NCBI GenBank assembly: GCA_028696515.1
Contig: JAQVGX010000001.1
Location: 1-46,969, forward strand
DNA: 46,969 nucleotides
Reading direction: 5' to 3'
Source of the DNA: Candidatus Dojkabacteria bacterium
Lineage (GTDB): Bacteria > Patescibacteriota > Dojkabacteria > JAHIVN01
Shown: positions 22,096 to 46,969 of the stretch, piece by piece
Position numbering within the stretch: position 1 is the stretch's first letter
Layout: each line of letters starts with the position of its first letter
The notes under the pieces: generated by a model
What the model was told of the DNA's origin: nothing
The model's database searches: none
Seen by the model: only the letters and a program-made list of their open reading frames with translations
Translations under genes and position numbers: made by a program

Positions 22096-23703
22096 TTATT
22101 TTCGAGAAGTATAAGTCAGGGCCACAAAGTCCTTGATGCGGCTTTTCGGGCTAATTATATTCATAGATACAAACAACATGCCTCCAAACAATACTAGATC
22201 TACACCAAAAGCAAACCACTCAGATTGCTGATCTTCTGAAGCAGTATCCGGCAACTCCCCAGTTTCAGGAAGAAATTCATCCAGCTCTATCTCACATGAG
22301 CTGTCGCAGCCGTCTCCGTCAATTACATTCCCATCATCGCACTCTTCTCCAGTGTCAAGGTTCCCATCACCACAAAATGGTTCTTCTTCCTCTTCTTGCA
22401 ACGTTACATTTTGCTTCGTCAAATAAATAGTATTTCCTCTATCTCCCGGGTTATCAGGTCCTGAATTATAGATATCACTTACAAGAATGTATGGCGCATC
22501 ATAACTACTGAGTTCAAGATCCATGTAAAGATACAACATCCCAATGTATACGGTCTCATTATAATTCAAGGCTAGGTCCTTGGGAGTAAAGAGCTCTCCA
22601 TCAAGATACGTATAATATACATCAACAATCTGATCATCCCCGGAATACTCGCTTCTTGCCCAAGCAATGTTAGGGACACCCCTCGTATCAAGCTCCATGT
22701 CACAATCCCAGTAAGTGAAAACATTTGTCTCTGTATCAACTGTAACAGCATTTGATTCATTCCATCCAGCACCTTTCTCTAGAAATCTTATTTCTTCCCC
22801 CGTTTCAGCTCCGTCATCGTCATGATACATCCATGCCAGATATTCGTTGCCCGATGTATCTATTCTTATTACTTGATAATCGTTCCATATATCAGAGTTT
22901 GTGCTCTCGGTAATCTGCTCAACTGCGCCGAACGTCACACCCGAACCACTCTCCGTGTCATAAGAATAGTAAACATTGATAAAAAAACTGCCTGTATCGA
23001 GTAGTGAGAATGCAACATATGGATTTCCGTCTTCATCCAAATCAATCGATCCATCATAGGGACGATAACCGTCACCTGAACTTAATACCTCAACTACCGC
23101 TCCCCAACTCCCTCCACTATATGTAGTATAATATACACCAGACCCTGAGAAGTCCCAGTCGTCCTCAAATAAAACATGTACCGTGTTATCGCTATCAATA
23201 TCAGCATCAAGTAGATTTGAAGCCAAATCAAAATCAGGCATAACTGCAGCGACTCCGAAGTCTGCACCACTATTTACTGCATAATTTACTCCGGTCGAGT
23301 AGTCATGCCAAAAAGCATATGTCTCAGAATCACCAACCAGTACCTGTGGCATATAGTAATCACCACCACTCTCAAATTGGCCAAATACTCCCACAGTAGG
23401 ATCTCCTTCGACTCCGGTTTCGTCTTCCCAAGAAGTCCCATTCCATGCTAGATAGGAAAAAAACAAAGCCGGAAAACTGCCCCCGGAATAAACAATATGG
23501 GGCTGACTGCTTGAATCCATATACATGCTGCAATAACCGTCATCATCATCAACCAGGTAATCCTGAGATACTCCGTCTACTGCATACCAGTCAGAACGGT
23601 CAACGACATAACTTTGGGCTTCCACACTTTTGTTCAAAAAAGATAAAAGTAATAAGGAGAGGCTAGAGATTAAAAGCAGTCGCTTCATAATGTTTATGGA
23701 CAT
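22096..23703 (-). CDS. Secreted beta-propeller-like surface protein with a Cys-rich repeat and LPETG sorting signal
   Basis: Signal peptide MKRLLLISSLSLLLLSFLNKSVEA. Repeated D..G.p.(V/I)A(W/F)...YY blades. One Myxococcus-type repeat, CGDGNLDTGEECDDGNVIDGDGCDSSC. LPETG at 22258-22272, followed by a hydrophobic helix and a basic tail. Confidence 0.8.
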   Translation of the reverse strand: MSINIMKRLLLISSLSLLLLSFLNKSVEAQSYVVDRSDWYAVDGVSQDYLVDDDDGYCSMYMDSSSQPHIVYSGGSFPALFFSYLAWNGTSWEDETGVEGDPTVGVFGQFESGGDYYMPQVLVGDSETYAFWHDYSTGVNYAVNSGADFGVAAVMPDFDLASNLLDADIDSDNTVHVLFEDDWDFSGSGVYYTTYSGGSWGAVVEVLSSGDGYRPYDGSIDLDEDGNPYVAFSLLDTGSFFINVYYSYDTESGSGVTFGAVEQITESTNSDIWNDYQVIRIDTSGNEYLAWMYHDDDGAETGEEIRFLEKGAGWNESNAVTVDTETNVFTYWDCDMELDTRGVPNIAWARSEYSGDDQIVDVYYTYLDGELFTPKDLALNYNETVYIGMLYLYMDLELSSYDAPYILVSDIYNSGPDNPGDRGNTIYLTKQNVTLQEEEEEPFCGDGNLDTGEECDDGNVIDGDGCDSSCEIELDEFLPETGELPDTASEDQQSEWFAFGVDLVLFGGMLFVSMNIISPKSRIKDFVALTYTSRK

Positions 23704-26598: not shown

Positions 26599-26636
26599 GT
26601 AGTCGAAAAAGCCTGTTGGATTTTGTTTTGTATACT

Positions 26637-29600: not shown

Positions 29601-32600
29601 CTAAGTGATACTCAAGGACAGTTCGGCGCAACTTATGAAGATGGTGACTATTTTGGATCCGCTCTAGGAAGCTTGGCAGATCTTGATGGTAACGGGGAAA
29701 GAGAACTCGTGGTAGGTGTTGAACGTGAGAGTAATAATTACACCTATGGCGACAGAGGAGCTATCTATACTATTTCTATTGATGCCGATGGAACAGTTAA
29801 CAGAACTTCTTCTGAAGTTGGAGGCTACGGATACGCTATTTTCACTAGCGGAACATATGGAAATGATCTTTTAATTCAAAGTGATGGGAAATACGTTATA
29901 TGTGGAGTTGACTATTCAGGATCCTACGCTCGAGACTTTGCCCTTTGGCGTATAAACAGCGATGGAAGCTTGGACACAACGTTTAATGGGGCTGGATATG
30001 TTACACACACTCATGCTGCAGGAGGTGGACTAGAGGAATGCTCCACCTTACAAGTTCAATCTGATGGCAAATATATAGCAGCAGGGTATGCAAGCAGCCC
30101 TGATAACCATAGTACAAACTACGAAATGACTCTTTGGCGCTATAACACCAACGGATCTTTAGATACCACCTTTGACAGTGATGGATATGCCGTATATTCA
30201 AATGCTGCAGGCGGATACGGACATGATTGGGGGAAGAGCTTAGAAATTGAAAACGATGGCCAGCCTACTATGAAATATGTAGTCGGAGGTTACAGCTGGA
30301 ATCCTGACCTTGATCCTGATATAGCTGTCTGGAGGTTAAATGAAAACGGTTCTCTGGACACAACTTTTCATAATCAAGGATATATAACTCTGGGAAATTC
30401 GGCTGGCGGAAATGATTCAGATGTTATTACTGATTTGGAGATTCAATCTGATGGGAAGTATATAATGGGCGGTTACTCTACTGGAACTGACGGCACATTC
30501 GATGCTGCAATTTGGAGATTGCAGGAACAAGGGGCAACAGGAGGAACAGGGATAGTCGTTTTCGAGGATAAAGAGCCTTATACAAGTTTATCTAAAACCA
30601 AAAGTTTATCGTCTTCTAATGTATTGGGGGATAATCAAGAGAACTTATCCGATAACTCTGAAGAGATAAAACACAAGGTCCAGCCATTGAAAAATAAGGT
30701 TAATTCTACTATTTCAAACATAATTTATACAACAAATACTTTAAACAAAACTGAGGCCCTCTCCTCAAAGATTTTATTAATTATAGGAATAATATCAATA
30801 AGTGGAACTGCAATAATTTGGATAAAATTTAAAAGATTATCAACTCCAAAATATCGAGATTTTAATCCTTTCGGTTTATACAAAAAAGAAACAGTCAACT
30901 ATAAACATTTACTTAGGAAACTTGCCTTTTCAGCTAATTCAAATCGAAAGCTCTTTATCGTACTCATTACACTTATCTTTACGATTGTAAACCTTTCGGT
31001 CCTACCTTTCGCAAAGAACACAAATGCTGCCTGGGATACAACATTCGATTCAGACGGATTCCTCTGGTATGATGAAGGTTACGGGTGGGATATTGGATAT
31101 GATTTGGAAATACTTCCTAGCGGAAAAATCTTGGTAGCAGGTTTTGTTACAAATTCTAGCGGGAATTGGGATATGGCTTTATGGCAATATAATAGTGATG
31201 GAACTCTTGACACGGCCAATTTCAACACCCCAAATGGATATGTTACCCATGACAGTGCAGCCGGTGGGGGTGATAGAGATAGTAGTTATTCATTGGCAGT
31301 TCAAACAGATGGGAAGATACTAGTAACAGGTTATAGTCTAAATTCAGCCTCAGACGGAGACCTTGTGATATGGAGATACAACAGTGACGGAACGATGGAT
31401 GATACTTTCGGTGACGGCAGTTGCAATAACGGGGTTGGTGTAGGATCCGATATGGGATGTGTGGTTCACCACAATGCAGCTGGTGGCGACGGGTATGATT
31501 CAGCTACTACAGTACTAGTCAATGATGCTGGTAAGATAATAGCTGTTGGATCAAGTGAAAACTCTCCAAGTACCTACGATTATAGTCTCGTAGTTTGGCA
31601 GTACAATAGTGATGGAACTATGGATGATACCTTTGGTGACGGCAGTTGCAATAATGGAGTTGGTGTTGGATCAGATATGGGATGTGTAGTTTTTCCAGGG
31701 CTAACAGCAGATGCAGATAACTGGAGCGACGGAGCTGTATTACAATCAGATGGAAAAATTGTAGCTGTCGGTTCTGCAGACAATGATACAAACTATTATG
31801 ATATGGCAATATGGAGATTCAATACTGACGGGACATTGGATGATACTTTCGGAGATGGGACTTGTAGTAATGGAGCAGGTATTAGTGGTGATATGGGTTG
31901 CGCTATTCACCATAATGCTGCAGGTGGCAATGATGACGACTTTGGAATTGCTGTAGCGATTGATGGTAATAATAATATTGTTGCAGCTGGATACAGTTAC
32001 AGCTCAACAAATGGTACAGATCTAGCTGTTTGGAGGTACAATTCTGACGGTGAACTGGATACCTCATTCAGCTCAGATGGATATACCTCTCATAATAGTG
32101 CAGCTGGAGGATCCTGGTGGGATTCTGGAGAAGATCTTGTTATCCAGAGCGACAACAAAATTGTTATCTCCGGGCAAAGTGATGACTCTGACGGTAATAC
32201 CGATATGACTATCTGGAGATATCAGACCGATGGAACACTAGACCCTTACTTCGGAGACGGAACATGCGTAAATGGAGTCAATTCAGGACACGGCTGTGTC
32301 AACCACAATGGTGATGAGGCTATTGCTGGCTTTAATGATGACTATGGTGGAGGAATAGATATAGTCGCTGATGGTACTTTTATCGTAAGTGGACAGGCAC
32401 AAGAAACTAACGTACAAAACAGAGATATGGCTATGTGGAAATTCATCCAAAGAAGCTACCAGATACTAAATCTAGATTCGTCTCTCAATGCAACCGACAG
32501 TTCAGGAAATAATGTTGAGGACGGATCAGCATATGGGTTAGAGGGGTCTTATACCATAAACATCACTGATACTTCGGGTAACTATATCGGCGAAGTATTG

Positions 32601-35435
32601 ACTGACTTCTCAGCCGATCTTGATTGGGGAAGCGTTATGGGTGATATCGATATGACTGAAAGGAAGTCCGTTATAGATAATCTCAGCTCAGCAGATGGAA
32701 CTGCAGCTACACATACACTTTACGTTCCAAAGGGAACGAGTGATACATCAGTGGGCATTTGTCCAAGTGCCACAGACCTCGCAAGTGTCAACGAGACATG
32801 TCCCGGATTGGAAATAAAAACAGCTGCATTTCCAGACGCATCAGTTGTCACACTTGGAGGCAACGAATACTGGAAAATAACCGGCCTCACAAGCACTGGC
32901 GGATTCAGTACTACATTAACACTTGATCCTACAACTAATACATTTGATGATGAATTTGATATCATACCTAATGCTACTTGCTCTCTTCGAGAAGCTGTAC
33001 AGGCTGTAAATATTCAAGCAGCATTTGGCGGATGTGATGCTCCAAATGATCAAAATGCAGTTATTCTTGAAGCAGGGACATATCAGTTAGATATTCTTGG
33101 CAGAGATGAGGACAATAACACCTCCGGGGATTTAGACATACTGCATGATATATCAGTTATAGGAGATGGAGAAACGCAAACAGTCATTAAGGGGAACCCC
33201 GACGGAGCAGAAGAGAGTACAAGAGATAGAGTATTCCAGCTTCACGATACTTATTCAGCCAATTTCGCTTACCTCACAATAAGGGACGGCTATCAAGAAA
33301 TCCCTGATTCTGCATTATATTCACTTCAAGGGGCTGGTATTCGTGCCGGAGCTGGTGTCTCTTTGGATCTAAATCACATTACTGTTAGAAACAACATACT
33401 ATATGATGATGTAAATAGCGAGTGGGGAGAGGGTGCAGGTGTATGTGTTGACGGTTCAAATATAGATCTCAGCATTAATGACTCAAATTTAATTTATAAT
33501 ACTATTGATGCCTTTGAAGGGCATGGAAGTGGAGGTGGAGGCCTTGCAGTTCTGGGAACAGCCGGAACTCATGACGTTTATATCAACAATTCAACTTTTA
33601 ACAACAATGAAGTAATCGTAACCGACGAATGGGAGGCTTATGGAGCCGGAATCAACATCGATGAGGCAGATGTCGAGATCTACAATAGTGAGATCAATGA
33701 TAATTACCTTCAAACTTACGCATCAACATATGGAGCAGGATTAAACATCTGGTGGACTTACTCACAACCGGCAATAATTGAAGATACCTCAATATCCGGG
33801 AATACAGCTGAAATCATAGCTCCTTGGGACATTTTGATCTGGGGAGTTGGCTTTAATTCTTTCAATGCAGTAAATATTAACAGATGTGATATAAGCAGAA
33901 ATGTTCTAACTGGAACATCATTTGGAGACTATCTTGAAATTTGGGCTGGCGGAGCGTACGTAACAGACGATTCTATCGTTACAAATTCCACAATAAGTAA
34001 CAATCTCATTGATGTTAGGGCTTCAGAAAACAACAGTGAACTAATATATGGAGCAGGGATAACACTCGACGGAGATACTATAGAGTTAACGAATAACACT
34101 ATAAGTGGGAATGAGATTAATGTTACATACGATACCATCGATACCGACCCCTATGTAACTCCATATATCATGGGAGCTGGTGGTATGAACATCTCAAACG
34201 ATGCTAGGCTTTCATTCAACACTATAGCTGACAACTCTATTTTCCCTTCTACTTATAATTACTTTGATAAATTTGGTAAGATTGGCAGCGGATATTTTGA
34301 ATGGGGTTATTCTTCTCTCAAATCCAATGTCTTCGACAATGTTCAAGACAACAATTCTGATTGTTTTGACGAAAACTATTATTGGAATGGATATGTAAGA
34401 CTAACTTCAGAAGGCTATAATTTCAATTCTGACGGCTCCTGCGTAGGTCCGGATATACAACCTAGCGATGACATAAGCACTGATCCTCTTATACAACCAC
34501 TTGACGATAATGGCGGAGGATTAGAAACCCATGCCCTGCTCCAGGCGAGTCCTCCGGTAGACTATTCATCGAACTGCTATGACGCCTTTGGTAGATTGGT
34601 AACCAACGATGAGCGTTTGGAAGATCGTCCAGTTGATGGTGATGAAAATGGTTCAGCCGTATGTGACAGTGGAGCGTATGAATACAACCCCGAGCAATCG
34701 GTACCTTATTGCGGAGATGGAAACCTTGATGATGGAGAAGAATGTGACGACGGCAATAATCAGGATGGAGACGGGTGCAGTGCTATATGTGAAATTGAAT
34801 CTCAGGAACCATACTGCGGTGACGGAAATGTAGATCAAGATGAACAATGCGATGACGGTAATACAACAAGCGGAGATGGATGTTCATCCAACTGTGAATT
34901 CGAGGAGGGAATATTCCACAACTGTGATGAGCACCTTGACTTCACTTTTTCTTACAACTTTGGTAATCCTGCTTGGTGGGACTCTGGGAATGCACCTCCG
35001 GAAGACATCGACTGCACCTGGGAACAGACACAGGGAACTGAAACAATAATCTTTGATCCGGAGAATGAAACTACTGAAGCCTTGAGCGATAGTGCCTATC
35101 CTCTTCAAGTTTCTACTGAAATTGAATTTGAGAATACTCCAGCAAATCGAAATGAAACTTATGGTGTCAGGGCAGTTTGTGAAGGATGGGAAAGTCCTGA
35201 GGAAACTTTTCTGGCAGGAGAAAAAATTGACTGCTGTGAAGATAGCATCATACCTTTCTTGCCCGAAACAGGAGAATTACCTAATACATATAATTTTGAC
35301 CTGAGCACCAGATACTGGATTATGCTGGGAATCAATCTCATACTTCTGGGATTTTCTATGAGGATTTTATTTGATTATTTTGCAAGATTTAAATATGTTA
35401 ATCTTATCAAAATAACAAATTCAAACAGATCTTAA
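26637..35435 (+). CDS. Giant (~2930 aa) multi-domain surface protein: delta-60 repeats, 12 FG-GAP repeats, internal TM hairpin, delta-60 repeats, CSLREA/parallel beta-helix, 2 Cys-rich repeats, LPETG anchor
   Basis: Signal peptide MFKLTK...SFSPRPVNA|E. LDTSF..TGY / SDGKYI delta-60 periodicity. FG-GAP consensus D.FG.S...(I/L)GDLD.DG..D(L/I)AVGA 12 times. CSLREA at 32979-32996. CGDGN..(D/Q).E(E/Q)CDDGN...GDGCS..C twice. LPETG at 35259-35273, then a TM helix and a basic tail. Confidence 0.9.
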   Translation: MFKLTKNTTIQLTIKLFILSSILISFSFSPRPVNAELYEWDTSFSSDGVAINASTAGGDGHEQINDIEIQSDGKYIATGWSVGILDASSKTYADLAVLRFNSNGTLDTSFGGTGYVTSRIGDNEYSMSAGNAIKIQNDGKYIVVGAKFSEDSIFGHMNVVLWRFNSDGTLDTSFNSTGYNIFTDIEGVGLDLEIENDGQPDMSYIVSGTSDGSTAIWKFDTNGDIEPGFGSLGSQKVTNGEGNFSSDLDFFGYSITYLGDLDIDGVDDLAVGEKEDNGTGSVQIVFMNSDGTIKSSSKIGEGEGGFGGSLDSNDDFGFSISEIGDLDNDGVVDIAVGAQYDDDENADSGAIWVIFLNSDGTVKAEQKISDTEGNFTGQLDTADYFGSSITNLGDLDADGVQDLAVGTMRDDDGGTNRGAVWILFMNTNGTVKAEQKISDTQGGFLGTISNNDSFGRVVENIGDLDGDLITDIAVGAPYDAGNSSAEGSTWILFLNTDGTVKSYQEINDLQGGFTGGLTSGDFFGISITDLGDLDTDGVQDIAVGGIGEDGKVGGVWILFLNSNGTVKSHQLISNTAGSFTGGLEQYDYFGISLENIDDFDGDGVQDIAIGATGGDFNSESVPSWNARREILWIIYLNTNGTVKGFEKLRNPEGLFHGFLDGQDYFGSAVTSIGDIDLDGYEDLAVGAPGDDGGGTNQGAVWILHLNENAQVITHQKISEIEGGFTGVLDTLDYFGTSVANIGDLDNDGVIDLAVGAYGDDDGGSGRGAVWILFMNSDSTVKSIQKISNTAGGFGGTLDNDDWFGSSVAPLGDLDGDGVEDIAVGAEKDDDDHSDAGAVWILFLNTDGTVKSYQKMSDSTGGLIIDLTSTNYFGASIANIGDLDDDGIVDIAVGAYNRTATSKGSLSIIFLNTNGTVKSDYEITSGTFPVTIDNSDWFGYSVTDIGDVDSDGVQDLAIGMPRDDDGGTDRGATWITFMNTNGSVKTVQKLSDTQGQFGATYEDGDYFGSALGSLADLDGNGERELVVGVERESNNYTYGDRGAIYTISIDADGTVNRTSSEVGGYGYAIFTSGTYGNDLLIQSDGKYVICGVDYSGSYARDFALWRINSDGSLDTTFNGAGYVTHTHAAGGGLEECSTLQVQSDGKYIAAGYASSPDNHSTNYEMTLWRYNTNGSLDTTFDSDGYAVYSNAAGGYGHDWGKSLEIENDGQPTMKYVVGGYSWNPDLDPDIAVWRLNENGSLDTTFHNQGYITLGNSAGGNDSDVITDLEIQSDGKYIMGGYSTGTDGTFDAAIWRLQEQGATGGTGIVVFEDKEPYTSLSKTKSLSSSNVLGDNQENLSDNSEEIKHKVQPLKNKVNSTISNIIYTTNTLNKTEALSSKILLIIGIISISGTAIIWIKFKRLSTPKYRDFNPFGLYKKETVNYKHLLRKLAFSANSNRKLFIVLITLIFTIVNLSVLPFAKNTNAAWDTTFDSDGFLWYDEGYGWDIGYDLEILPSGKILVAGFVTNSSGNWDMALWQYNSDGTLDTANFNTPNGYVTHDSAAGGGDRDSSYSLAVQTDGKILVTGYSLNSASDGDLVIWRYNSDGTMDDTFGDGSCNNGVGVGSDMGCVVHHNAAGGDGYDSATTVLVNDAGKIIAVGSSENSPSTYDYSLVVWQYNSDGTMDDTFGDGSCNNGVGVGSDMGCVVFPGLTADADNWSDGAVLQSDGKIVAVGSADNDTNYYDMAIWRFNTDGTLDDTFGDGTCSNGAGISGDMGCAIHHNAAGGNDDDFGIAVAIDGNNNIVAAGYSYSSTNGTDLAVWRYNSDGELDTSFSSDGYTSHNSAAGGSWWDSGEDLVIQSDNKIVISGQSDDSDGNTDMTIWRYQTDGTLDPYFGDGTCVNGVNSGHGCVNHNGDEAIAGFNDDYGGGIDIVADGTFIVSGQAQETNVQNRDMAMWKFIQRSYQILNLDSSLNATDSSGNNVEDGSAYGLEGSYTINITDTSGNYIGEVLTDFSADLDWGSVMGDIDMTERKSVIDNLSSADGTAATHTLYVPKGTSDTSVGICPSATDLASVNETCPGLEIKTAAFPDASVVTLGGNEYWKITGLTSTGGFSTTLTLDPTTNTFDDEFDIIPNATCSLREAVQAVNIQAAFGGCDAPNDQNAVILEAGTYQLDILGRDEDNNTSGDLDILHDISVIGDGETQTVIKGNPDGAEESTRDRVFQLHDTYSANFAYLTIRDGYQEIPDSALYSLQGAGIRAGAGVSLDLNHITVRNNILYDDVNSEWGEGAGVCVDGSNIDLSINDSNLIYNTIDAFEGHGSGGGGLAVLGTAGTHDVYINNSTFNNNEVIVTDEWEAYGAGINIDEADVEIYNSEINDNYLQTYASTYGAGLNIWWTYSQPAIIEDTSISGNTAEIIAPWDILIWGVGFNSFNAVNINRCDISRNVLTGTSFGDYLEIWAGGAYVTDDSIVTNSTISNNLIDVRASENNSELIYGAGITLDGDTIELTNNTISGNEINVTYDTIDTDPYVTPYIMGAGGMNISNDARLSFNTIADNSIFPSTYNYFDKFGKIGSGYFEWGYSSLKSNVFDNVQDNNSDCFDENYYWNGYVRLTSEGYNFNSDGSCVGPDIQPSDDISTDPLIQPLDDNGGGLETHALLQASPPVDYSSNCYDAFGRLVTNDERLEDRPVDGDENGSAVCDSGAYEYNPEQSVPYCGDGNLDDGEECDDGNNQDGDGCSAICEIESQEPYCGDGNVDQDEQCDDGNTTSGDGCSSNCEFEEGIFHNCDEHLDFTFSYNFGNPAWWDSGNAPPEDIDCTWEQTQGTETIIFDPENETTEALSDSAYPLQVSTEIEFENTPANRNETYGVRAVCEGWESPEETFLAGEKIDCCEDSIIPFLPETGELPNTYNFDLSTRYWIMLGINLILLGFSMRILFDYFARFKYVNLIKITNSNRS
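27381..29720 (+). repeat. Array of 12 FG-GAP-type coding repeats (period ~62-70 aa)
   Basis: Runs from DFFGYSITYLGDLDIDGVDDLAVG to DYFGSALGSLADLDGNGERELVVG. Each unit is followed by AVWI(L/I)F(L/M)N..GTVK-type strands. Confidence 0.85.
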
Positions 35436-36905: not shown

Positions 36906-38018
36906 ATGAATTGGGGAGCCGAAGTTGAGCTCTCCTTTAATACTATAGCCAATAACTCTGTACCGGAAACCTACTTTTTAATTCCTCCCGAAACAAATCC
37001 CCAAAAACTTGGAAGCGGATACTTCGAATGGGGAACAACAGTTATGAAATCAAATATATTTGACAATGACCAAGACGGAAATCAAAACTTTTTTGACGAA
37101 TCAGTTTACTGGGATGTTCCTCCATCTCCAAATACAACCTCACTAGGATACAATATCGATAGCGATAATTCTCTAATTAGCGTGATAACACCAGGTACAG
37201 AAGACCTGTATGATGATCCCGAGATTGATCCTTTGGCAGATAATGGAGGCACATTGTATACCCATGCACTTCCATTGACTAGTCCAGCCTTAGATTATTC
37301 TACAGACTGTACAGATGCTGGAGGTACTCCTGTCACAACAGATGAACGCCTTATCTCCCGTCCAATAGATGGTGATGAAAATGGTTCAGCCGTGTGTGAC
37401 AGCGGAGCATATGAATACAACCCCGAGCAATCGGTACCTTATTGCGGAGATGGAAACCTTGACGATGGAGAAGAATGTGACGACGGCAATAATCAGGATG
37501 GAGATGGGTGCAGTGCAACTTGTGAATTTGAAGAAGGAATTTTTCACAACTGTAACGAACACCTTGATTTTACATTTGATTATAACTTTGGTGATCCCTC
37601 TTGGTGGGATAGCGGCAATGCTCCTCCTGAAGATATAGACTGTATCTGGGAACAGACACAGGGGACTCAAACAATTCTATTCGATCCTGAAGCTGAAACT
37701 ATCACCGCCGGTACAGACAGCTCATATCCTCTCAGCATTTCTACTTCAATTGAATTTGAGAACACACCAACAAACAGGAATGAGACTTATGGGACACGAG
37801 CTGTATGCGGAACATGGATCAGCCCTGAAGAAACTTTCCTTGCTTCGGAGAAAATAGATTGCTGTGAGGACAGTATCATCCCGTTCTTACCCAAAACAGG
37901 AGAATTACCGAGTACATACAATCTTGATCTAAGTACCAGATACTGGGTCATGCTTGGGATCAATCTTATTCTTCTTGGTTTTTCATCCAAGATTTTAATT
38001 GACTATTTCAAGAAATAG
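36906..38018 (+). CDS. CSLREA/beta-helix surface protein, C-terminal segment with Cys-rich repeat and LPKTG anchor
   Basis: This frame is open and homologous upstream of the listed Met (NNTISGNWIDFNWN...). It has one CGDGNLDDGEECDDGNNQDGDGCS repeat. LPKTG at 37887-37901, then a TM helix and KK tail. Confidence 0.75.
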   Translation: MNWGAEVELSFNTIANNSVPETYFLIPPETNPQKLGSGYFEWGTTVMKSNIFDNDQDGNQNFFDESVYWDVPPSPNTTSLGYNIDSDNSLISVITPGTEDLYDDPEIDPLADNGGTLYTHALPLTSPALDYSTDCTDAGGTPVTTDERLISRPIDGDENGSAVCDSGAYEYNPEQSVPYCGDGNLDDGEECDDGNNQDGDGCSATCEFEEGIFHNCNEHLDFTFDYNFGDPSWWDSGNAPPEDIDCIWEQTQGTQTILFDPEAETITAGTDSSYPLSISTSIEFENTPTNRNETYGTRAVCGTWISPEETFLASEKIDCCEDSIIPFLPKTGELPSTYNLDLSTRYWVMLGINLILLGFSSKILIDYFKK

Positions 38019-39523: not shown

Positions 39524-42500
39524 ATGCTTGAACCTCAAATCGATCAAACAAACTATAGTCCTGAAAGAAAGCTCAAAATCGAAAATTTGGCAATATTTGT
39601 AGCACTGAGCGTCATCATTATTATTCTTTTTTTGTTACTCCGTGAGCCGGCAACCAATTTTGTTGAATCGATTGTAGAAAACGAACCATCGAAAGAAGAT
39701 CAACCTGAATCAGCAGTTAGCAGTTCAAAAACCATTGCTGAATACATAGGTGAGCTAAAAGAAGGAAATGCTATTACACTCACACCTACTATAAATGTAC
39801 TTGGAAATGTCATCAACGAAGAGGTAACAATTAACGACCTACCCGACACCGGTGAAGATGACCCTTGGGTAAATGTTATTGGCGACACGATGACAGGAGA
39901 TCTGACGATAACTGGGGGAGCTAACCTAATTCTTACTGATTCCGAAGACCTTGTTTTCAGCAACGTTTCACTCAAATCCTCACTTTCCAGACAAAACAGC
40001 GGAGCTTTCTTTGTAGGAACATTTGATGAATATGTCAATAGTGACAGCACCAACGTACAAGATGTGATGGATGATTTGGATGAAGCCATTGGCAGCCTTC
40101 AAAATAGAGTCGTTTATTGGAACGAAGCTTATAGCTGGGGAGACCACAGTATTGTTGGATATTTGACAGAAGAATCCGAAGAAACAGATCCTGTTTGGAC
40201 AGAAGCTGAGTCAAGCTACTTCAACATATCTGAAAACGAGTTAATTACTGGGTGGCCAAACTTTGCCGGGGGTCAGAGCGGTATAAGAGCACCTTTTAGA
40301 GTTGACAGTACATTTCTTGTGACAAATCTTAACGCTGATCTTCTCGACGGCTATCATGCCTCTGACTTTATGGGAGAAGGCGTAGATCTTTGGGTTGACG
40401 AGACAGGAGATACTATGTCTGGAATCTTAAATATGGGAGGTTACAGGATCGAAAATATAGCGGTACCAAACTCAAATGATGACGCAATTGATTTCGGCTC
40501 TGCTGAATCAAACTATATAAACGATGGAGCAGGAGAAATCAACGCTGTTGGAGATTTTAACTTTGCCGCAACAACTAATATCACAAATCTAAGCGCTGAT
40601 TATCTAGACAGCCAGGACAGCAGTTACTATCGCAATGTATCAAACATTAACGCCGGAACCTTAGGAAGTGCTTACTTCAGTGCATACTCAGATCTAAATG
40701 CCGAAGGATACGTGCCCGCTTCATCTACTACGATATGGACCAATACTAACGACGGGGCTGGCAGCGGACTTGACGCTGATCTGCTTGACGCTCAGACAGG
40801 CACCTACTATACAAACGCTTCCAATATAAACTCGGGCACATTGGGCACTGCTTATTATAGTGCATATGCTGATCTTACGGCCGAAAACTACCTGAATAAT
40901 GATGCCGGGACAGATCTACTGACACAAACCCAGTTAGATGGAAGATACATCAATAACACCGGAGATACTATGACTACCGCCGGATTGCCATTTTCCGGTA
41001 TTACAACTGATATTTATACTCCGAGCGGTGAAGCGCTTACTCTAAGTGCTCCTGGCGCACAAGATATAAATTTATACACAGGTTCAGGAGTAATAGGCAT
41101 AGGAACGACAACCTCTCTCGTTGAAGTTTCAAATGTATCGACTGCCTATTCTGATCATAAAGATCTCCTTATCAGATCAACCGGAACCAACCAGGCAACA
41201 TATTTTCGTGTTGCCCCAAATGGTACCCCGCCCGATTCAATTATATGGTCAACTGTGCAGGTCTTTGCTACAGACTGGTCAGCTGACCAGTCAAATGTTG
41301 AAGCCGTTGAGATGAGATTTAATCGGGATGCAGACGGCGCTCCAGGAAATCAATCAATTTTTCAAATTAACACCTATGCAGGAGGAACAGGAACCCTGCA
41401 TCCCCTTGCAATAACAGTAGACGATGAAGCATATAAAGGAATCTTCATCGATACCGGAGCAAATGTTGGTATTGGTTCAACTTCCCCTGCGCAAGAACTT
41501 GACGTAGAAGGAGACATCCAGCTCGATGCAAACGAGTCTGCAACTACAAATGGTTTATGTCATTCTGGAGCCAACTCGGATACAACTTTCACAGATCGCA
41601 ATATAGTAGCATGTTCATCAACCCCTGGTGATATAGCTGAATGGTATGACACAAAGGATGCCGAAGCCGGAGACATTGTATATACAACAGGTGAAAAAAT
41701 TACCTATATATCACCGGCTGTCAACGCCGAAACCGGAGAAGTTCTAAATCAGAATGAAAAGTTAACTGCAAGTATACTGGCAAAAAGCAACCGTCCTTAC
41801 CAAGCAAATATCTTGGGAGTAGTATCAACCTCTCCTTACGAATCTTTCGGCAAGGCTATCAATAAATATTCTTCAAACCCCAATCCTATAGCACTTACAG
41901 GACGCGTCCCAGTGAAAGTTGTCACTTACAACGGAGCTATAAAGCCGGGTGACCCTATCACAGCAAGCAGTATAGCTGGGGTAGGTATGAAAAGCACTAA
42001 ACCAGGGCATATCATTGGAATAGCATTAGACCATTATGACAGTATCAACCCTTATAAAGTTGGTAAAATACTGGTTTCCATCAACCTCAGCTGGTATGAG
42101 CCTGAGAGTTATCTCAAAAAGGTAAACGAAACAATTCAGGCATATGATATGTTGAGTACGCAGGGACAAATTGATATATTACCGGATCTCAATATAACCG
42201 ACACTTTAACAGCCAAAAATGCTTCAATCTTGTCGATTCAAGTGAAAGATATAACTGTTCAGAATAATCTTGAAGTTTCAGGAGTACTAACATCGAGGTC
42301 GATAAAAGCAGATACAATAGAATCTGCATTCTCCAAAAGTATCATTATCAAGCTGTCAGACCACTTGGGTAATACAGCATTCGAAGTACAAAACGATCAG
42401 AGCGAAAAAGTATTCAGCATTGATAGTAACGGAAAGATTTATATACTATCAGATTCTTCCAATACTTCTGTAGGATCAACAGTTTTATCTCCTGGAAATG

Positions 42501-42682
42501 AAGAGATAAGAGTAGAGACTAAGGCAGTAACATCTGACTCAAAGATATTTATTAGCCCGATTTCCACTTCTTCGATTCCGCCGAACGTATGGATTAAAGA
42601 AAAGGGAATTGGATTTTTCATCATCCGGCAAGAGGAAGTATCTGATCAAAACCTTGTGGTTGATTGGTGGGTCATCAATTAG
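39524..42682 (+). CDS. Membrane-anchored tail-fibre-like protein, paralogue 1 (1052 aa)
   Basis: N-terminal TM LAIFVALSVIIIILFLLL. LPDTGE at 39839-39853. GDTM(T/S)G three times, NADLLDGYHASDF, GANVGIGSTSP. C-terminal DIAEWY...AGDIV...ILGVVSTSP...LTGRVPVKV domain. Ends DWWVIN. Confidence 0.85.
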   Translation: MLEPQIDQTNYSPERKLKIENLAIFVALSVIIIILFLLLREPATNFVESIVENEPSKEDQPESAVSSSKTIAEYIGELKEGNAITLTPTINVLGNVINEEVTINDLPDTGEDDPWVNVIGDTMTGDLTITGGANLILTDSEDLVFSNVSLKSSLSRQNSGAFFVGTFDEYVNSDSTNVQDVMDDLDEAIGSLQNRVVYWNEAYSWGDHSIVGYLTEESEETDPVWTEAESSYFNISENELITGWPNFAGGQSGIRAPFRVDSTFLVTNLNADLLDGYHASDFMGEGVDLWVDETGDTMSGILNMGGYRIENIAVPNSNDDAIDFGSAESNYINDGAGEINAVGDFNFAATTNITNLSADYLDSQDSSYYRNVSNINAGTLGSAYFSAYSDLNAEGYVPASSTTIWTNTNDGAGSGLDADLLDAQTGTYYTNASNINSGTLGTAYYSAYADLTAENYLNNDAGTDLLTQTQLDGRYINNTGDTMTTAGLPFSGITTDIYTPSGEALTLSAPGAQDINLYTGSGVIGIGTTTSLVEVSNVSTAYSDHKDLLIRSTGTNQATYFRVAPNGTPPDSIIWSTVQVFATDWSADQSNVEAVEMRFNRDADGAPGNQSIFQINTYAGGTGTLHPLAITVDDEAYKGIFIDTGANVGIGSTSPAQELDVEGDIQLDANESATTNGLCHSGANSDTTFTDRNIVACSSTPGDIAEWYDTKDAEAGDIVYTTGEKITYISPAVNAETGEVLNQNEKLTASILAKSNRPYQANILGVVSTSPYESFGKAINKYSSNPNPIALTGRVPVKVVTYNGAIKPGDPITASSIAGVGMKSTKPGHIIGIALDHYDSINPYKVGKILVSINLSWYEPESYLKKVNETIQAYDMLSTQGQIDILPDLNITDTLTAKNASILSIQVKDITVQNNLEVSGVLTSRSIKADTIESAFSKSIIIKLSDHLGNTAFEVQNDQSEKVFSIDSNGKIYILSDSSNTSVGSTVLSPGNEEIRVETKAVTSDSKIFISPISTSSIPPNVWIKEKGIGFFIIRQEEVSDQNLVVDWWVIN

Positions 42683-42882
42683 TATAGGGAGAGATAGTAA
42701 TGATAATCCTATGACAGGGAAATGTTGACAAATTACATAGGCAAGGAAAAAGACAAAGCAGCCAGTTTGTTCTTCAAGTAAGGAAATACTTTAATCCTTA
42801 ACACATACCCGTCTTTCAAGCGGACCTCCCAACCTAACTCCAATGACTAAATCAACTCAATCAACACAGCCCTCAAATGATA

Positions 42883-42911
42883 TTGTAATGTCTCCCTTAA
42901 CTCTCTATAAT
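42883..42911 (+). promoter_or_regulatory. Sigma70-like promoter of paralogue 2
   Basis: TTGTAA (42883-42888), 17-nt spacer, perfect TATAAT (42906-42911), 41 nt before ATG 42952. Confidence 0.4.
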
Positions 42912-42951
42912 AATTAATAAATAAGTGAAGAAAACACCTTTTACTGCCTCT

Positions 42952-45900
42952 ATGAAGGAACAGAGTACAAACAATAAGTTGATTATTATAGCAGGACTGG
43001 TTGTTCTCGTTCTCATACTAGCATTACTTCTAAAACAACCAATTACGAGCCTCGTTAATCCATCAGCGCAGGACGATTCTTCATCTGATATCGAGGGGAC
43101 TCAAAGCAGAACAGTTACAGAGTATATCACCGAACTTAAAGAGGGCAAACCTTCTACCTTTACTCCAAAAATAGAAGTTCTCGGAGACGTTATTTATGAA
43201 GATTACTCTACAACCACTCTCCCAGAAACAGGTGAAACTACCATAGATGACATTTGGGTAAATACAACTGGTGATACTATGACTGGAAACCTCTCCATCA
43301 CCAAAGACGGTACTCTTGTTCTGCCCAGAATTGAATCTTTGATTTTTAATTCATCTACCTTAGGGGATACTAACTCAGCCTCAGACAGTGGTGCATTTCT
43401 GATAGGTGCTTTTGATGAATTTACAAACAGTGACAACACAAATGTTCAAGCCATTCTTGACGATCTTGATAAGGCTATTTCAGATCTGGAATCGTCTATA
43501 CCTTCTATAACTGAATCCGATCCTATTTTTTCAGCCAGTCCAGCTGCCTCAATTACGAATACATACATTTCTCATTGGAATGCAGCTTATTCTTGGGGTG
43601 ACCATGCCCTGATAGGTTACCTCACCTCAGAGTCTGATCCTGTTTGGACAGCAGCTGAACCCAGCTACTTTAATAGAACCCAGAATGAAACCGTAACCGG
43701 AATTCCTAGTTTCAATGGAGGTCTTAGCGGAAGTACAGCACCTTTTACAGTTGACAGCACATATATGATTTCAAATCTAAATGCCGACCTTCTTGATGGC
43801 TATCATGCTGCCGATTTTATGGGCGGAGGTATTGATCTGTGGATTGATGAAACAGGTGATACTATGCTTGGAGATTTGATACTAAGCGGAGCTGATATTA
43901 ACATTGGAACTAACAATTTAATAACCGGATCTAACTCTCTTTCTTCTTCTGAGTTAGATATTCTTGATTCTGGAATCAACTTTTCAGAGCTTAGCGGCAC
44001 ACTTGGCGATACTCAGATATCAGTAGGAGCCGTGGACTTGGATACGACTGAAGTAGCTGGAATACTTCCGATAGCAAACGGTGGCACCAATGCATCCTCA
44101 TATACGACAAATGAATTCCTCTGGTACAACGGAACAAGAATAGTATCAAGCGGATATGATCAAAACGATTTTATGCCAGCTGTTACCGACAATTGGGTAG
44201 ATGAGGCGGGAGATACTATGACTGGAACACTTATCTTCTCTGGGGTTGCTACTGATATAACAACTGCAGGCGGAGAGGCAATTACTATATCTGCACCTGG
44301 AGCTGGTCACATAATTTTGGATGCAGGAACTGGAAATGTAGGGATTGGTACCACCAATCCTTTAGCAACACTTGATCTTCAGGGGGATGGAATAATCCGA
44401 GGAGATCTTGTAATACGTGAAACGACACCGGATACTGAAGCTTGGGACTCTATCAGTACGATAAATGCTCCACTAGCAAGAGACAGTCATTCAGCAGTCT
44501 GGACCGGCAGCGAAATGATTATCTGGGGTGGGAGATATAGTTCTGGAGCTTATAATACGGGAGGTATTTACGATCCAGAAACGGACTCCTGGACAGCAAC
44601 AACTACCACAGCAGCTCCTACCGCAAGACAAGTACATGCGAGCATATGGTCAGGTAGTAAGATGATTATACTTGGAGGTCTTAGTGGAGGCGGATCTTGT
44701 CTAAGTTCAGGTGGTATCTATGATCCTGGCACAGACAGTTGGACAGCAACATCAACTACTGGTGCCCCAACTGATATATCAGACAAAACTACCATATGGA
44801 CTGGCAACAAATTCATAGTCTGGGGAGGAGTTTGCTCAGATCTCAATACTGGATCTATCTATGATCCTATCTTGGATACATGGACTTCAATTTCGACATC
44901 AGGGGCACCTACAGCCAGATCAGGACATACCGTAGTCTGGACCGGAAAGAAAATGATAGTTTGGGGAGGCATATCTGGAATCAACTATTTAAATAGTGGC
45001 GGAATGTACGATCCGGAAACAGATACCTGGACAACTATTACAACGACCGGAGCTCCATCAGCAAGAGCAGTCCCTGAACTAGTCTGGACAGGAGACAAAG
45101 TAATAGTCTTTGATGGGTTCAACTACAACTTTAATCCCTCTTCTCCTTCCTGGGGTGGTATCTATGATCCTGAAACCAATAGTTGGCTCTCAGTATCCTT
45201 TGGATCAGGAAGAGAAAGTGGTGCAGTTGTCTGGACAGGAAATAGAATGACCAGATGGGGAGGCATGACAGCAACTCCGGCAACAGTTTCCGGCACAGGT
45301 GTCATTTACGATATAGAAACAAACTCACTCGTATCCATGCTTGATGTAGGAGATCCATCAGCAAGATATGCACATACAGCGATTTGGACCGGAAACCAGA
45401 TCATCATATGGGGAGGAAACACATCATATGGTTATTTAAACGATGGAGGTATATATACATCACCTACAGAGAAAGGTGGAAAGCTTTATGTACAAGGAGA
45501 GGCTACCATCGATGACAATCTTTTTGTAAGTAAAACAATAACTGCTGGGGGAATTCACAGTGAGGGCGGAGCAGATATAGCAGAGTACTACCCCACAATT
45601 GATCCATCTATCGAAGCAGGAGATGTAGTCTCAATCAGCGATAATACTCAGATAGAAAAATCAAATACATTATACGGGTCAAAATTAATTGGGGTCGTAT
45701 CGACTAACCCGGGTGTTACCTTATCATCAAAAGAGACAAACCCTTCATCAAAAGAGTATCGTCTTGTAGCACTTGCCGGAAGAGTGCCAGTAAAATTTAC
45801 TACAGAGAACGGCACAGTAAAAGGAGGAGATTATCTAGTTTCTTCTTCTACGCCGGGAACAGCTATGAGTGCCTGCGGACCCAAATACTGCATGAGCGGA

Positions 45901-46545
45901 ATGTCAATCGGAACTGCTCTTGAAGATGTAAATTCTGACGGTCTAGTCCTTCTGTTCGTCAACCTTACCTGGTACCAACCAGAAAGCACTAGACTAAAAC
46001 TTGAAAAAATAATCGCTGAATATGAAGACGGAAATCTTGACATAATTGACAATCTCACGGTTACCCAAAAGCTAAGTGCCGACGTCGCATCCTTCAAATC
46101 TGTCACTATCAATGATCTAGTAGTTGATAATCGATTAAAGGTAGCTGGTTTACTGACAGCTTCAAATATTAGAACAGGCATCATTGAATCAATCAATACT
46201 TCTGATATCATAGTACGATTATCTGATCACCTTGGCTCCACTGCTTTTAGGATAGAAGATGAGAATGAGAAAATGATTTTTCAAATCGACAGCGCAGGGA
46301 AAATTCAACTAAAAGAAGATCCACAATCACCTTCGATAGGAGAAGGGACTATAACAAGTGGAAATGATCAAGTGAGAATCAGAACAAAGAGTGTCGGTGA
46401 CAATTCAAGAATCTTCATTACTCCTACTGTAACAACCGATAAACAGCTTTCAGTCACCGAGAAGGCCTCTGATGATTATTTCTTGGTAACAATATCATCC
46501 CCAGTGGACTATGATATTACCTTCGATTGGTGGATTATCAATTAA
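42952..46545 (+). CDS. Membrane-anchored tail-fibre-like protein, paralogue 2, with a 7-blade Kelch-like beta-propeller insert
   Basis: I prefer ATG 42952 (MKEQSTNNK...) because it matches the paralogue 3 start; the track uses GTG 42925. TM LIIIAGLVVLVLILALLL. LPETGE at 43219-43233. GDTM(T/L)G three times, NADLLDGYHAADF, GNVGIGTTNP. Seven W(T/S)G..(M/I/F)I.(W/L/F)(G/D)G blades. ADIAEYY...AGDVV...LIGVVSTNP...LAGRVPVKF. Ends DWWIIN. Confidence 0.85.
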   Translation: MKEQSTNNKLIIIAGLVVLVLILALLLKQPITSLVNPSAQDDSSSDIEGTQSRTVTEYITELKEGKPSTFTPKIEVLGDVIYEDYSTTTLPETGETTIDDIWVNTTGDTMTGNLSITKDGTLVLPRIESLIFNSSTLGDTNSASDSGAFLIGAFDEFTNSDNTNVQAILDDLDKAISDLESSIPSITESDPIFSASPAASITNTYISHWNAAYSWGDHALIGYLTSESDPVWTAAEPSYFNRTQNETVTGIPSFNGGLSGSTAPFTVDSTYMISNLNADLLDGYHAADFMGGGIDLWIDETGDTMLGDLILSGADINIGTNNLITGSNSLSSSELDILDSGINFSELSGTLGDTQISVGAVDLDTTEVAGILPIANGGTNASSYTTNEFLWYNGTRIVSSGYDQNDFMPAVTDNWVDEAGDTMTGTLIFSGVATDITTAGGEAITISAPGAGHIILDAGTGNVGIGTTNPLATLDLQGDGIIRGDLVIRETTPDTEAWDSISTINAPLARDSHSAVWTGSEMIIWGGRYSSGAYNTGGIYDPETDSWTATTTTAAPTARQVHASIWSGSKMIILGGLSGGGSCLSSGGIYDPGTDSWTATSTTGAPTDISDKTTIWTGNKFIVWGGVCSDLNTGSIYDPILDTWTSISTSGAPTARSGHTVVWTGKKMIVWGGISGINYLNSGGMYDPETDTWTTITTTGAPSARAVPELVWTGDKVIVFDGFNYNFNPSSPSWGGIYDPETNSWLSVSFGSGRESGAVVWTGNRMTRWGGMTATPATVSGTGVIYDIETNSLVSMLDVGDPSARYAHTAIWTGNQIIIWGGNTSYGYLNDGGIYTSPTEKGGKLYVQGEATIDDNLFVSKTITAGGIHSEGGADIAEYYPTIDPSIEAGDVVSISDNTQIEKSNTLYGSKLIGVVSTNPGVTLSSKETNPSSKEYRLVALAGRVPVKFTTENGTVKGGDYLVSSSTPGTAMSACGPKYCMSGMSIGTALEDVNSDGLVLLFVNLTWYQPESTRLKLEKIIAEYEDGNLDIIDNLTVTQKLSADVASFKSVTINDLVVDNRLKVAGLLTASNIRTGIIESINTSDIIVRLSDHLGSTAFRIEDENEKMIFQIDSAGKIQLKEDPQSPSIGEGTITSGNDQVRIRTKSVGDNSRIFITPTVTTDKQLSVTEKASDDYFLVTISSPVDYDITFDWWIIN

Positions 46546-46714: not shown

Positions 46715-46969
46715 ATGAAGGAACAGAATAAAGGCAACAACCTCATATTTTTGGCAGGATTGATCGTTCTCGTCATTATACTGGCACTGCTTCTAAAACA
46801 ACCAATTGCATCCCTTGTTAACCCCTCCTCAAATGATACTTCTACTTCTGACGTAGAAGGCGCTCAAGGCAAAACAATTACAGATTATATTACTGAACTT
46901 AAGGACGGAAGAGTTTCTACTTTTACTCCAAAAATAGAGGTTTTGGGAGATATCATTTATGAAGATTAT
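46715..46969 (+). CDS. Membrane-anchored tail-fibre-like protein, paralogue 3 (3' end cut by window edge)
   Basis: Not in the ORF track because no stop is reached. The translation MKEQNKGNNLIFLAGLIVLVIILALLLKQPIASLVNPSS...TDYITELKDGRVSTFTPKIEVLGDIIYEDY is roughly 75% identical by eye to the N-terminus of paralogue 2. Confidence 0.8.
   Translation, partial: MKEQNKGNNLIFLAGLIVLVIILALLLKQPIASLVNPSSNDTSTSDVEGAQGKTITDYITELKDGRVSTFTPKIEVLGDIIYEDY

Follow-up and report, generated by a model that had tools for sequence, protein, structure and literature searches.

Two genes in a window of 46,969 nucleotides from Candidatus Dojkabacteria bacterium (the whole stretch analysed; contig C22 of the draft genome G000, which comprises 1.64 Mb in 128 contigs and is 86% complete) encode tail-fibre-like surface proteins that carry an LP(D/E)TGE word on the far side of their N-terminal membrane helix. 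Sequence comparison indicates that this LPxTG motif is real and under selection, and the fibre motif is one member of a lineage-wide class of N-proximal LPxTG motifs, not a feature specific to the fibres. We consider it probable, at roughly 55%, that the word is a functional sortase site in an inverted N-terminal signal, at which a cut would free the ectodomain from its membrane anchor. The features of the two proteins, and of a third paralogue that runs off the window, are as follows (aa, amino acids; ORF, open reading frame; TM, transmembrane):

39524..42682 (+): fibre paralogue 1, 1052 aa, tail-fibre-like, N-terminally anchored surface protein (ORF, translation, weak PHROG tail-fibre match)
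39587..39640 (+): predicted signal-anchor TM helix of paralogue 1, residues 22-39, with R15, K16 and K18 before it (translation; N-in by the positive-inside rule)
39728..39823 (+): extracellular stub block KTIAEYIGELKEGNAITLTPTINVLGNVINEE of paralogue 1, residues 69-100 (alignment)
39839..39856 (+): N-proximal LPDTGE of paralogue 1, residues 106-111, a putative sortase site with the cut at T109/G110 (translation, alignment)
39881..39898 (+): first GDTMTG fibre repeat of paralogue 1, residues 120-125 (translation)
42925..46545 (+): fibre paralogue 2, 1206 aa from GTG, with a Kelch propeller at about residues 500-840 (ORF, Pfam, structure-database match)
42979..43032 (+): predicted signal-anchor TM helix of paralogue 2, residues 19-36 (translation)
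43108..43203 (+): stub block RTVTEYITELKEGKPSTFTPKIEVLGDVIYED of paralogue 2, residues 62-93 (alignment)
43219..43236 (+): N-proximal LPETGE of paralogue 2, residues 99-104, a putative sortase site (translation, alignment)
43270..43287 (+): first GDTMTG repeat of paralogue 2, residues 116-121 (translation)
46715..46969 (+): start of fibre paralogue 3, 85 aa, with TM helix and stub block, which runs off the window 5 residues short of the expected motif

Both fibres begin with a few basic residues and a single hydrophobic helix, followed by a low-complexity linker, a stub block of about 32 residues (KTIxEYIxELKEG...TPxIxVLGxVIxE) and the motif. The sequence-only reading had placed LPDTG at 39839-39853 and LPETG at 43219-43233, each followed by E, and translation agrees with it; the motif was also said to lie about 65 residues after the TM helix and just before GDTMTG, and the distances are indeed 66 and 62 residues from the helix and 9 and 12 residues to the first GDTMTG in paralogues 1 and 2, respectively. 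Nothing hydrophobic is found C-terminal of the fibre motifs, since the sole TM helix and the basic residues precede them, and the C-termini (...DWWVIN and ...DWWIIN) hold no C-terminal sorting signal. Hydrophobic helices were called by a Kyte-Doolittle threshold, and the topology, with the N-terminus inside and the motif outside, was deduced from the positive-inside rule together with the extracellular type of the downstream domains.

The fibres are best described as N-terminally membrane-anchored, tail-fibre-like surface proteins. PHROG tail-fibre profiles match them weakly (7e-11 and 1e-4); for paralogue 1, searches of Pfam, NCBIfam and PDB sequences gave no match, and neither M26 nor G5 domains were found in the fibres by Pfam. 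The GDTMTG and ETDPxF..NWNxAYSWGDH repeats are common to hundreds of fibre-like proteins in a representative library, and homologous internal repeats of the ..DIWVNxxGDTMTG type occur in many fibre proteins. As for the start of paralogue 2, GTG at 42925 and ATG at 42952 (MKEQSTNNK...) are both available, and the latter is likelier because paralogue 3 and the orthologue P0014 start at the equivalent position.

In the alignment of fibre N-termini, the four sequences that bear the motif agree in L, P, T, G and E, while the residues directly before the motif differ (TIND versus STTT) and a 3-residue indel directly follows it, which bears out the earlier observation that the flanks change and LP(D/E)TGE is kept. 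The LPDTGEDDPW of paralogue 1 is identical in the same-genus orthologue P0008/P0012, and the LPETGE of paralogue 2 is kept in the 65%-identical orthologue P0014/P0011, where the next residues change from TTIDDIW to VIVEDLW. Most of the invariant alignment columns are held by the stub block, with the distant homologue P0077 included. Conservation of the motif throughout the family stood in part: it is present in four of the five sequences sharing the fibre N-terminus and in the distant fibre P0088, and it is lost in P0077.

Relatives sharing this N-terminus are few. A HMMER scan of 1.8 billion cluster representatives found the N-terminal block only in P0014, P0001, P0023 (the fragment of paralogue 3) and P0077, all other matches falling in the repeats. 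A word-indexed search with residues 1-220 of paralogue 1 gave one close orthologue only, scans of genome contigs and metagenome contigs gave the same-genus orthologue only, and further fibre relatives sought in 401 genomes across the phylum amounted to weak noise. The copy of paralogue 3 in the window ends ...IIYEDY and resumes on contig C36 at TGDTMTG, so that about 19 residues including the motif position are unassembled; no long repeat shared with paralogue 2 was found to account for the C22/C36 contig break. Paralogue 3 (window 46715-46969 plus C36:1-1575) is short, at about 640 aa, and a Cys-rich end replaces its ...DWWVIN module. C121:121-1359 starts within a fourth paralogue, which matches the C-terminal 414 residues of paralogue 1 at 57% identity.

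P0088, a distant fibre of another lineage, shows the same order of elements: behind a basic tail and a TM helix, LPLTGE follows after 11 residues and GDTMIG after another 15. Its neighbours on a Logan contig are DAGK, a glycosyltransferase and LigT, the last being only 29% identical to that of G000, and Peptidase_S74 appears in P0088 only as a weak precomputed match. The called start of this protein (1856 aa; L171:2432-2860, Logan SRR13394437) falls inside the TM helix; the frame is open for about 40 codons upstream, encoding a basic tail and the first half of the helix, and the gene probably starts at an upstream non-ATG codon. The fibre data by themselves are suggestive but thin, and two paralogues alone cannot decide whether the motif exceeds chance; it is the genome-wide census that places it beyond chance.

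The census covered all LPxTG words in about 1470 ORFs of G000, called mechanically as the longest ORF with an overlap filter, and its control consisted of the 23 remaining permutations of L, P, T and G. The N-proximal window was set at 100 residues after an N-terminal hydrophobic helix, which amounts to some 36-41 thousand residues in 422 ORFs. Since the permuted motifs were counted in identical ORFs and windows, the control is insensitive to the choices made in calling ORFs and helices. Among the 32 LPxTG words of the genome, 14 are C-terminal signals, 10-11 are N-proximal and about 7 are scattered, the last number equalling the permuted-motif background of about 6.4. The permuted motifs gave a mean of 0.22-0.26 and a maximum of 2 in the N-proximal windows, so that the Poisson probability of 10 occurrences is about 6e-14, or 5e-5 against the worst permutation. 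When words of the form L?xTG were counted in these windows, LP occurred 11 times and every other second residue at most 3 times. A class of N-proximal LPxTG motifs thus exists and is strongly non-random. In G002 (644 kb, another genus) an independent census counted 5 N-proximal LPxTG where 0.17 were expected, and one of the 5 belongs to a family that G000 did not show.

Besides the fibres, the carriers comprise a VWA/DUF11 protein (C56), a protein of MopE-type Cys-rich repeats (C80:624-2651), a DUF3048 protein (C79), and four families without a Pfam match (C13 with its paralogue C20, C36, C44 and C119). Basic residues precede the helix in all N-proximal carriers; the spacer from helix to motif is 7-36 residues in carriers other than the fibres, where it is 62-66, and the residue after the motif is usually E, D or S. 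Examples of N-proximal motif segments are TINDLPDTGEDDPW, STTTLPETGETTID, ELQDLPKTGSEPRL and STFTLPQTGEETTI, and a C-terminal example is IIPFLPETGELPNT. N-proximal motifs and the 14 C-terminal ones share their preferences, with x mostly E or D and the +1 residue mostly E. Internal sites are conserved in a CAP-domain protein (about residue 193, just after the CAP domain) and in a C2 protein (about residue 370), and both are conserved in G002 as well.

The family is represented in the collection by four species genomes, namely G000, G003 of the same genus, and G001 and G002 of other genera. Orthologues in G001-G003 were retrieved with a chimeric query of carrier N-termini, and the motif fared as follows in four non-fibre families:

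C44 family: L-P-x-T-G in 4 of 4 genomes, x = Q
CAP family: L-P-x-T-G in 4 of 4 genomes, x = I/T/E/V
MopE family: L-P-x-T-G in 4 of 4 genomes, x = R/K/K/L
VWA/DUF11 family: L-P-x-T-G in 4 of 4 genomes, x = K/V/E/A

In these alignments 13-32% of columns are invariant overall, and the four motif columns always are. Four more homologues of C44 from the protein database (50-81% identity) all have LP[QE]TG, bringing the total to eight of eight sequences. The AlphaFold2 model of C44 places LPQTG between the TM helix and a beta-sandwich (predicted local distance difference test, pLDDT, 70-84), in a stretch that is unstructured and of low confidence; this is weak evidence that the motif would be accessible. 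Six database orthologues of the VWA/DUF11 protein were found at 48-62% identity, three of them being the G001-G003 proteins, and LPxTG stands at residues 36-40 in every distinct sequence, the four fixed residues being invariant in all nine distinct sequences of the family; the full-length orthologues are P0168-P0173, the C56 copy being cut by the contig end. At least four of these orthologues carry a second, C-terminal signal (LVNTGE, LARTGE, LVKTGE or LVKAGE) followed by a TM segment and a Lys/Arg-rich tail, so that this RrgA-like adhesin of VWA and immunoglobulin (Ig) domains would have a possible sortase signal at both ends.

Several carriers have architectures of their own. At C119:15-5396 a tandem array of three genes ends, gene by gene, in the same cassette of LVPTG, TM segment and RFR, which is followed by a cytoplasmic tail in the two complete genes; only 382-2580 has an N-proximal LPDTG, and C119 paralogues in related genomes have EEEVTPEE in its place. 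The C2 family (C2:2418-5150, and a 924-aa ORF at G002:C11) consists of proteins of about 910 aa with TM helices at both ends, in which C(D/E)FQLPxTG lies internally at about residues 370-377 and is conserved in two genera; a cut there would give two separately anchored halves. The CAP protein (C80:10597-12030, minus strand) is composed of a signal or TM helix, the CAP domain, a linker, an Ig-like domain and C-terminal TM helices, with LAKTG between two TM segments of its C-terminal membrane part. Its orthologues lie in loci L039-L041 and homologues from other Patescibacteria in L107-L135, and the linker motif (LPITG, LPTTG, LPETG or LPVTG) is seen in this family only.

The genome also uses the classical signal. 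Three genes near the fibres have C-terminal LPXTG signals with a TM segment and basic tail at the positions that the sequence-only reading had given:

22258..22272 (-): C-terminal LPETG signal, F-LPETGELP, of a 535-aa protein (22096-23703) (translation; TM segment and basic tail)
35259..35273 (+): C-terminal LPETG signal, F-LPETGELP, of a 2939-aa FG-GAP/DUF5122 giant (26616-35435) (translation; TM segment and basic tail)
37887..37901 (+): C-terminal LPKTG signal, F-LPKTGELP, of a 370-aa protein (36906-38018) (translation; TM segment and basic tail)

That proximity to these LPXTG giants is a relevant context for the fibre motif was not upheld, because the class spans unrelated exported proteins throughout the genome. 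Definitions, searches and annotations of sortase signals treat them as C-terminal features. The classical sorting signal (TIGR01167/PF00746) and the carriers described here share the pentapeptide, the preferences at x and +1, and a location near a TM helix with a basic far end, which in the carriers is predicted to be at the outer face. The order is reversed: the classical signal reads LPXTG, TM helix, basic tail, whereas the carriers read basic tail, TM helix, LPxTG at the N-terminus, and the fibre motif, at residues 99-110 of proteins of 1052-1206 aa, falls outside the C-terminal position that defines the sorting-signal family. The outcome would differ as well, because the classical signal links its passenger to the wall, while here the acyl-enzyme would carry the anchor stub and the passenger would be freed with a Gly N-terminus.

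No sortase gene lies in the window, as the earlier reading had said. A search of the whole genome, which that reading had proposed, found four PF04203 matches above the cut-off, all outside the window (on C123, C108, C46 and C40):

C123:2152-3036: sortase (PF04203)
C108:16793-17458 (-): sortase (PF04203)
C46:12797-13735 (-): sortase, 313 aa, with a long N-terminal extension (PF04203)
C40:1273-1953: sortase (PF04203)

All four retain the His, the Arg and TLxTC-like motifs (LTLYTC, IKLITC, LTLMTC, VTLQTC); in NCBIfam they match only the generic sortase_fam and stay below every class A-F cut-off. Sortases are found in 356 of the 401 sampled Patescibacteria genomes. A dedicated sortase beside the carriers was considered and rejected, the neighbours of the four sortase genes being housekeeping or unrelated genes. 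The C46 sortase (C46:10250-13735) lies on the strand opposite to ftsA and ftsZ, directly downstream of them, and next to a sigma-factor gene, which is a housekeeping, division-site context.

The mechanism that we favour starts from the order of the inverted signal, in which a basic cytoplasmic N-terminal tail, a signal-anchor TM helix and a spacer would precede LPxTG. The mirror-image layout would put the motif on the outer membrane face, on the same side as in the classical signal and at a similar distance, which is where membrane-anchored sortases act. One of the four sortases would cut between T and G, detaching the fibre of about 940-1100 aa from its anchor and leaving Gly as the new N-terminus (predicted starts GEDDPW and GETTIDD, in segments GEDDPWVNVIGDTMTGDL and GETTIDDIWVNTTGDTMTGN), and the short acyl-enzyme of stub-LPxT could be resolved by water or by a wall nucleophile. 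In its acyl-intermediate a sortase retains the piece of the chain that lies on the N-terminal side of the scissile T-G bond. As this piece is the anchor stub in the inverted signal, release or maturation of signal-anchored proteins would be the simplest consequence, and it fits all carriers. The sortase would then do for these proteins the job that signal peptidase I does for ordinary secreted proteins, perhaps under regulation. In the VWA/DUF11 and C119 families, whose proteins carry L[PVA]xTG, a TM segment and a basic tail towards the C-terminus, a wall-linked protein would have its N-terminus freed by the cut; carriers with a C-terminal TM helix would keep that anchor; and in the CAP and C2 proteins, whose N-terminal fragment amounts to a real domain, this fragment may be anchored to the wall in the ordinary way. 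That a sortase reads the motif, that it cleaves there and what becomes of both products we infer from the sequences.

A number of observations weigh against this mechanism. P0077 (28% identity), the sole distant homologue with the fibre N-terminal block, shares the TM helix and stub block and has QEPGGVE at the motif position, so the motif is not obligatory in fibres. It is also patchy in other families, being present in two of four DUF3048 orthologues and two of three C36 orthologues and absent from some C13 and C119 paralogues; from its absence in P0077 and in several members of these four families it follows that the motif is dispensable for folding and export. No sortase gene adjoins any carrier gene in G000. 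A sortase attaches the N-terminal fragment of its substrate, which here is just a membrane stub, so the reaction looks wasteful. The fibre spacer of 62-66 residues is long and contains a conserved block, putting the motif farther from the membrane than in other carriers, and the conserved stubs of the fibres and the C44 family suggest that the stub may be more than a disposable anchor. The AlphaFold2 model of the fibre N-terminus, made from a single sequence, is uninformative (pLDDT 35; only the TM helix, that of paralogue 2, is confident). Finally, signal peptidase I is encoded in G000, so that a second release route is not obviously needed; that a sortase replaces a missing signal peptidase I was accordingly rejected.

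Some of these points would be accommodated if something other than a sortase reads the motif, such as a different protease, a partner that binds the wall or S-layer, or a system for glycosylation or another modification, in which case the likeness to sortase signals would be convergent or incidental. Besides the lack of genetic linkage between sortases and carriers and the conservation of the stub regions in the fibres and C44, such a reader is favoured by a layout that violates the defining arrangement of sortase signals. We nevertheless regard it as unlikely, because the selected word is exactly L-P-x-T-G with the x and +1 preferences of the 14 classical signals, and because the N-proximal class was found only in genomes that use C-terminal LPxTG. 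To our knowledge, no reader of LPXTG other than sortase is established in bacteria.

The distribution behind the latter point is as follows. G177, a complete genome of the same class (724,554 bp, 3 sortases), has neither C-terminal nor N-proximal LPxTG signals, and its sortases must therefore read another motif. This genome, stitched from L069-L105, has only 2 LPxTG in its whole proteome; a candidate alternative sortase end is ...SLPKTAKLSILL...KREI. G355, a genome of another family with 4 sortases (788 of 878 kb covered), has a few C-terminal LPxTG signals and shows no N-proximal enrichment (1 versus 0.52 expected). Two minus-strand ORFs of G355 (L172-L211), at about 593215 (1208 aa) and about 351687 (174 aa), have LPKTG or LPLTG with a TM helix immediately after; with a few residues before the motif and no signal peptide, the motif would be cytoplasmic unless the topology is unusual. 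The CAP protein is widespread among Patescibacteria, 293 of 401 genomes having matches to a chimeric query whose listed matches were dominated by the CAP segment. In 29 CAP-family homologues from other Patescibacteria families the linker is variable and LPxTG occurs in none, so the motif was a gain of this Dojkabacteria-like family. A Patescibacteria-wide occurrence of the class is rejected on three grounds, i.e., the lack of LPxTG signals in G177, the lack of enrichment in G355 and the 29 CAP homologues without the motif. In this small sample the class is seen only where C-terminal LPxTG is used, and not everywhere that it is used.

A further alternative, which the sequence-only reading had raised for the fibres and the neighbouring giants, is ligation: the lineage would use sortase as a natural protein ligase, the exposed Gly of a freed ectodomain attacking the acyl-intermediate of another substrate with a C-terminal L[PVA]xTG to give head-to-tail polymers or giant-LPET-G-fibre composites. 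An N-terminal Gly is the classical type of nucleophile in sortase transpeptidation, three genes with C-terminal LPXTG neighbour the fibres, and two carrier families combine N-proximal LPxTG with C-terminal L[VA]xTG(E), TM segment and basic tail, for which head-to-tail joining is conceivable. Against it, a C-terminal signal is lacking in most carriers, among them the fibres; the genes that encode carriers lie dispersed on many contigs and unpaired with particular LPXTG genes; the product would regenerate LPxTG and again be a substrate, which would make the reaction reversible; and natural pili use Lys isopeptides instead. Ligation, though chemically possible, we hold to be quite unlikely in general, and no evidence was found for the speculative joining of the fibre Gly to the LPET of the giants; such a fusion would retain no cell anchor and no obvious attachment to the cell.

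The default outcome of sortase chemistry would be attachment of the stub, that is, linkage of TM-stub-LPxT to peptidoglycan as a covalent tether between membrane and wall, with the N-terminal domain of the CAP and C2 proteins being wall-anchored and the C-terminal product being of secondary importance. The conserved stub blocks agree with this, as do the N-terminal fragments of CAP (to about residue 193) and C2 (to about residue 370), which are real domains. It is very unlikely as a general account, because eight of the ten N-proximal carriers have just a TM helix and 7-36 poorly conserved residues before the motif, and a membrane-embedded, wall-linked peptide has no known role.

Chance, neutral inheritance or a quirk of the fibre N-terminus, e.g., a decayed repeat of the LPLTGGTMTG type (a common tail-fibre repeat word, P0157) without any role in processing, might be argued from a motif that only two independent paralogue lineages show, that P0077 does not have and whose random occurrence is about 6 per genome, and is rendered hardly credible by enrichment across the genome, by motif columns that stay invariant between genera in unrelated non-fibre families and by P0088 as an independent case. 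Cleavage by a sortase for release or maturation is the reading that we retain. The earlier interpretation holds in so far as the motif is selected, has the LPxTG(E) flavour of this genome, is predicted to face outwards, coexists with sortases and would, if cut, give the fibre a Gly N-terminus, and does not hold in so far as it made the motif special to the fibres.

In the laboratory, a sortase-cleavable N-terminal tag has the order tag, LPXTG, protein, and its cleavage yields an N-terminal Gly usable as a ligation nucleophile; the carriers would have the same layout and product, with the difference that the tag is engineered and the carriers are natural. Removal of a membrane-embedded N-terminal export segment, as proposed here, would resemble the action of signal peptidase I. 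Unlike signal peptidase substrates, the carriers have long, anchor-like helices (about 18-25 hydrophobic residues), and the proposed cut would fall 7-66 residues past the helix at a sortase motif and not at AxA. Sortase-assembled pilins combine a C-terminal LPXTG with a pilin-motif Lys and a class C sortase in the operon, whereas the fibres have no C-terminal signal, no sortase in the window and no sortase at the class C cut-off in the genome.

The closest natural precedent is found in the M26 zinc metalloproteases (Zmp) of streptococci and Gemella (IgA1 protease/ZmpA, ZmpB, ZmpC and ZmpD), which have an atypical N-terminal LPXTG (PMC3518915; PMC9637739). PMC3518915 gives their layout as a signal peptide followed by LPXTG, two TM segments and a further signal-peptidase site, and passages in PMC3518915 and PMC9637739, citing Bender & Weiser 2006, describe the N-terminal LPXTG as required for proper localisation. 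These enzymes and the carriers are alike in that LPXTG lies near the N-terminus of a large surface protein with the bulk of the protein C-terminal to it. They differ in that the Zmp motif precedes its TM helices, while here the motif comes after a single TM helix and has none behind it, and in that the M26 enzymes form one protein family, while here at least ten unrelated families of one lineage are involved. In the literature searched, M26 Zmp is the only described natural N-terminal LPXTG, and full-text literature on N-terminal LPXTG, on sortases of Patescibacteria or the Candidate Phyla Radiation (CPR), and on signal anchors does not describe a natural N-terminal signal in which LPXTG follows a TM helix. 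The wording 'N-terminal LPxTG' in PMC5152845 denotes ordinary C-terminal signals, and a recent CPR pilus paper concerns donor-strand-exchange pili, not sortase.

If the favoured reading is true, a mirror-image signal has arisen repeatedly, on at least ten unrelated surface proteins, in a lineage of ultra-small bacteria that are uncultured and depend on hosts. A second physiological role would then fall to sortase, that of releasing or maturing signal-anchored proteins as a site-specific protease, possibly also that of a ligase. Predictions of Patescibacteria surface proteomes would then miss this class, and the carriers and sortases would be natural substrate-enzyme pairs for the N-terminal-Gly-exposing reaction used by protein engineers. 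Should the ligase reading be true, appendages would be assembled through peptide bonds, unlike the Lys-isopeptide pili of Gram-positive bacteria, with head-to-tail polymers of the VWA/DUF11 adhesin or fibre-on-giant composites as example products. For the fibres, the cut would decide whether they stay tethered to the membrane, are shed or pass to the wall, and this fate bears on how these epibionts may contact their hosts.

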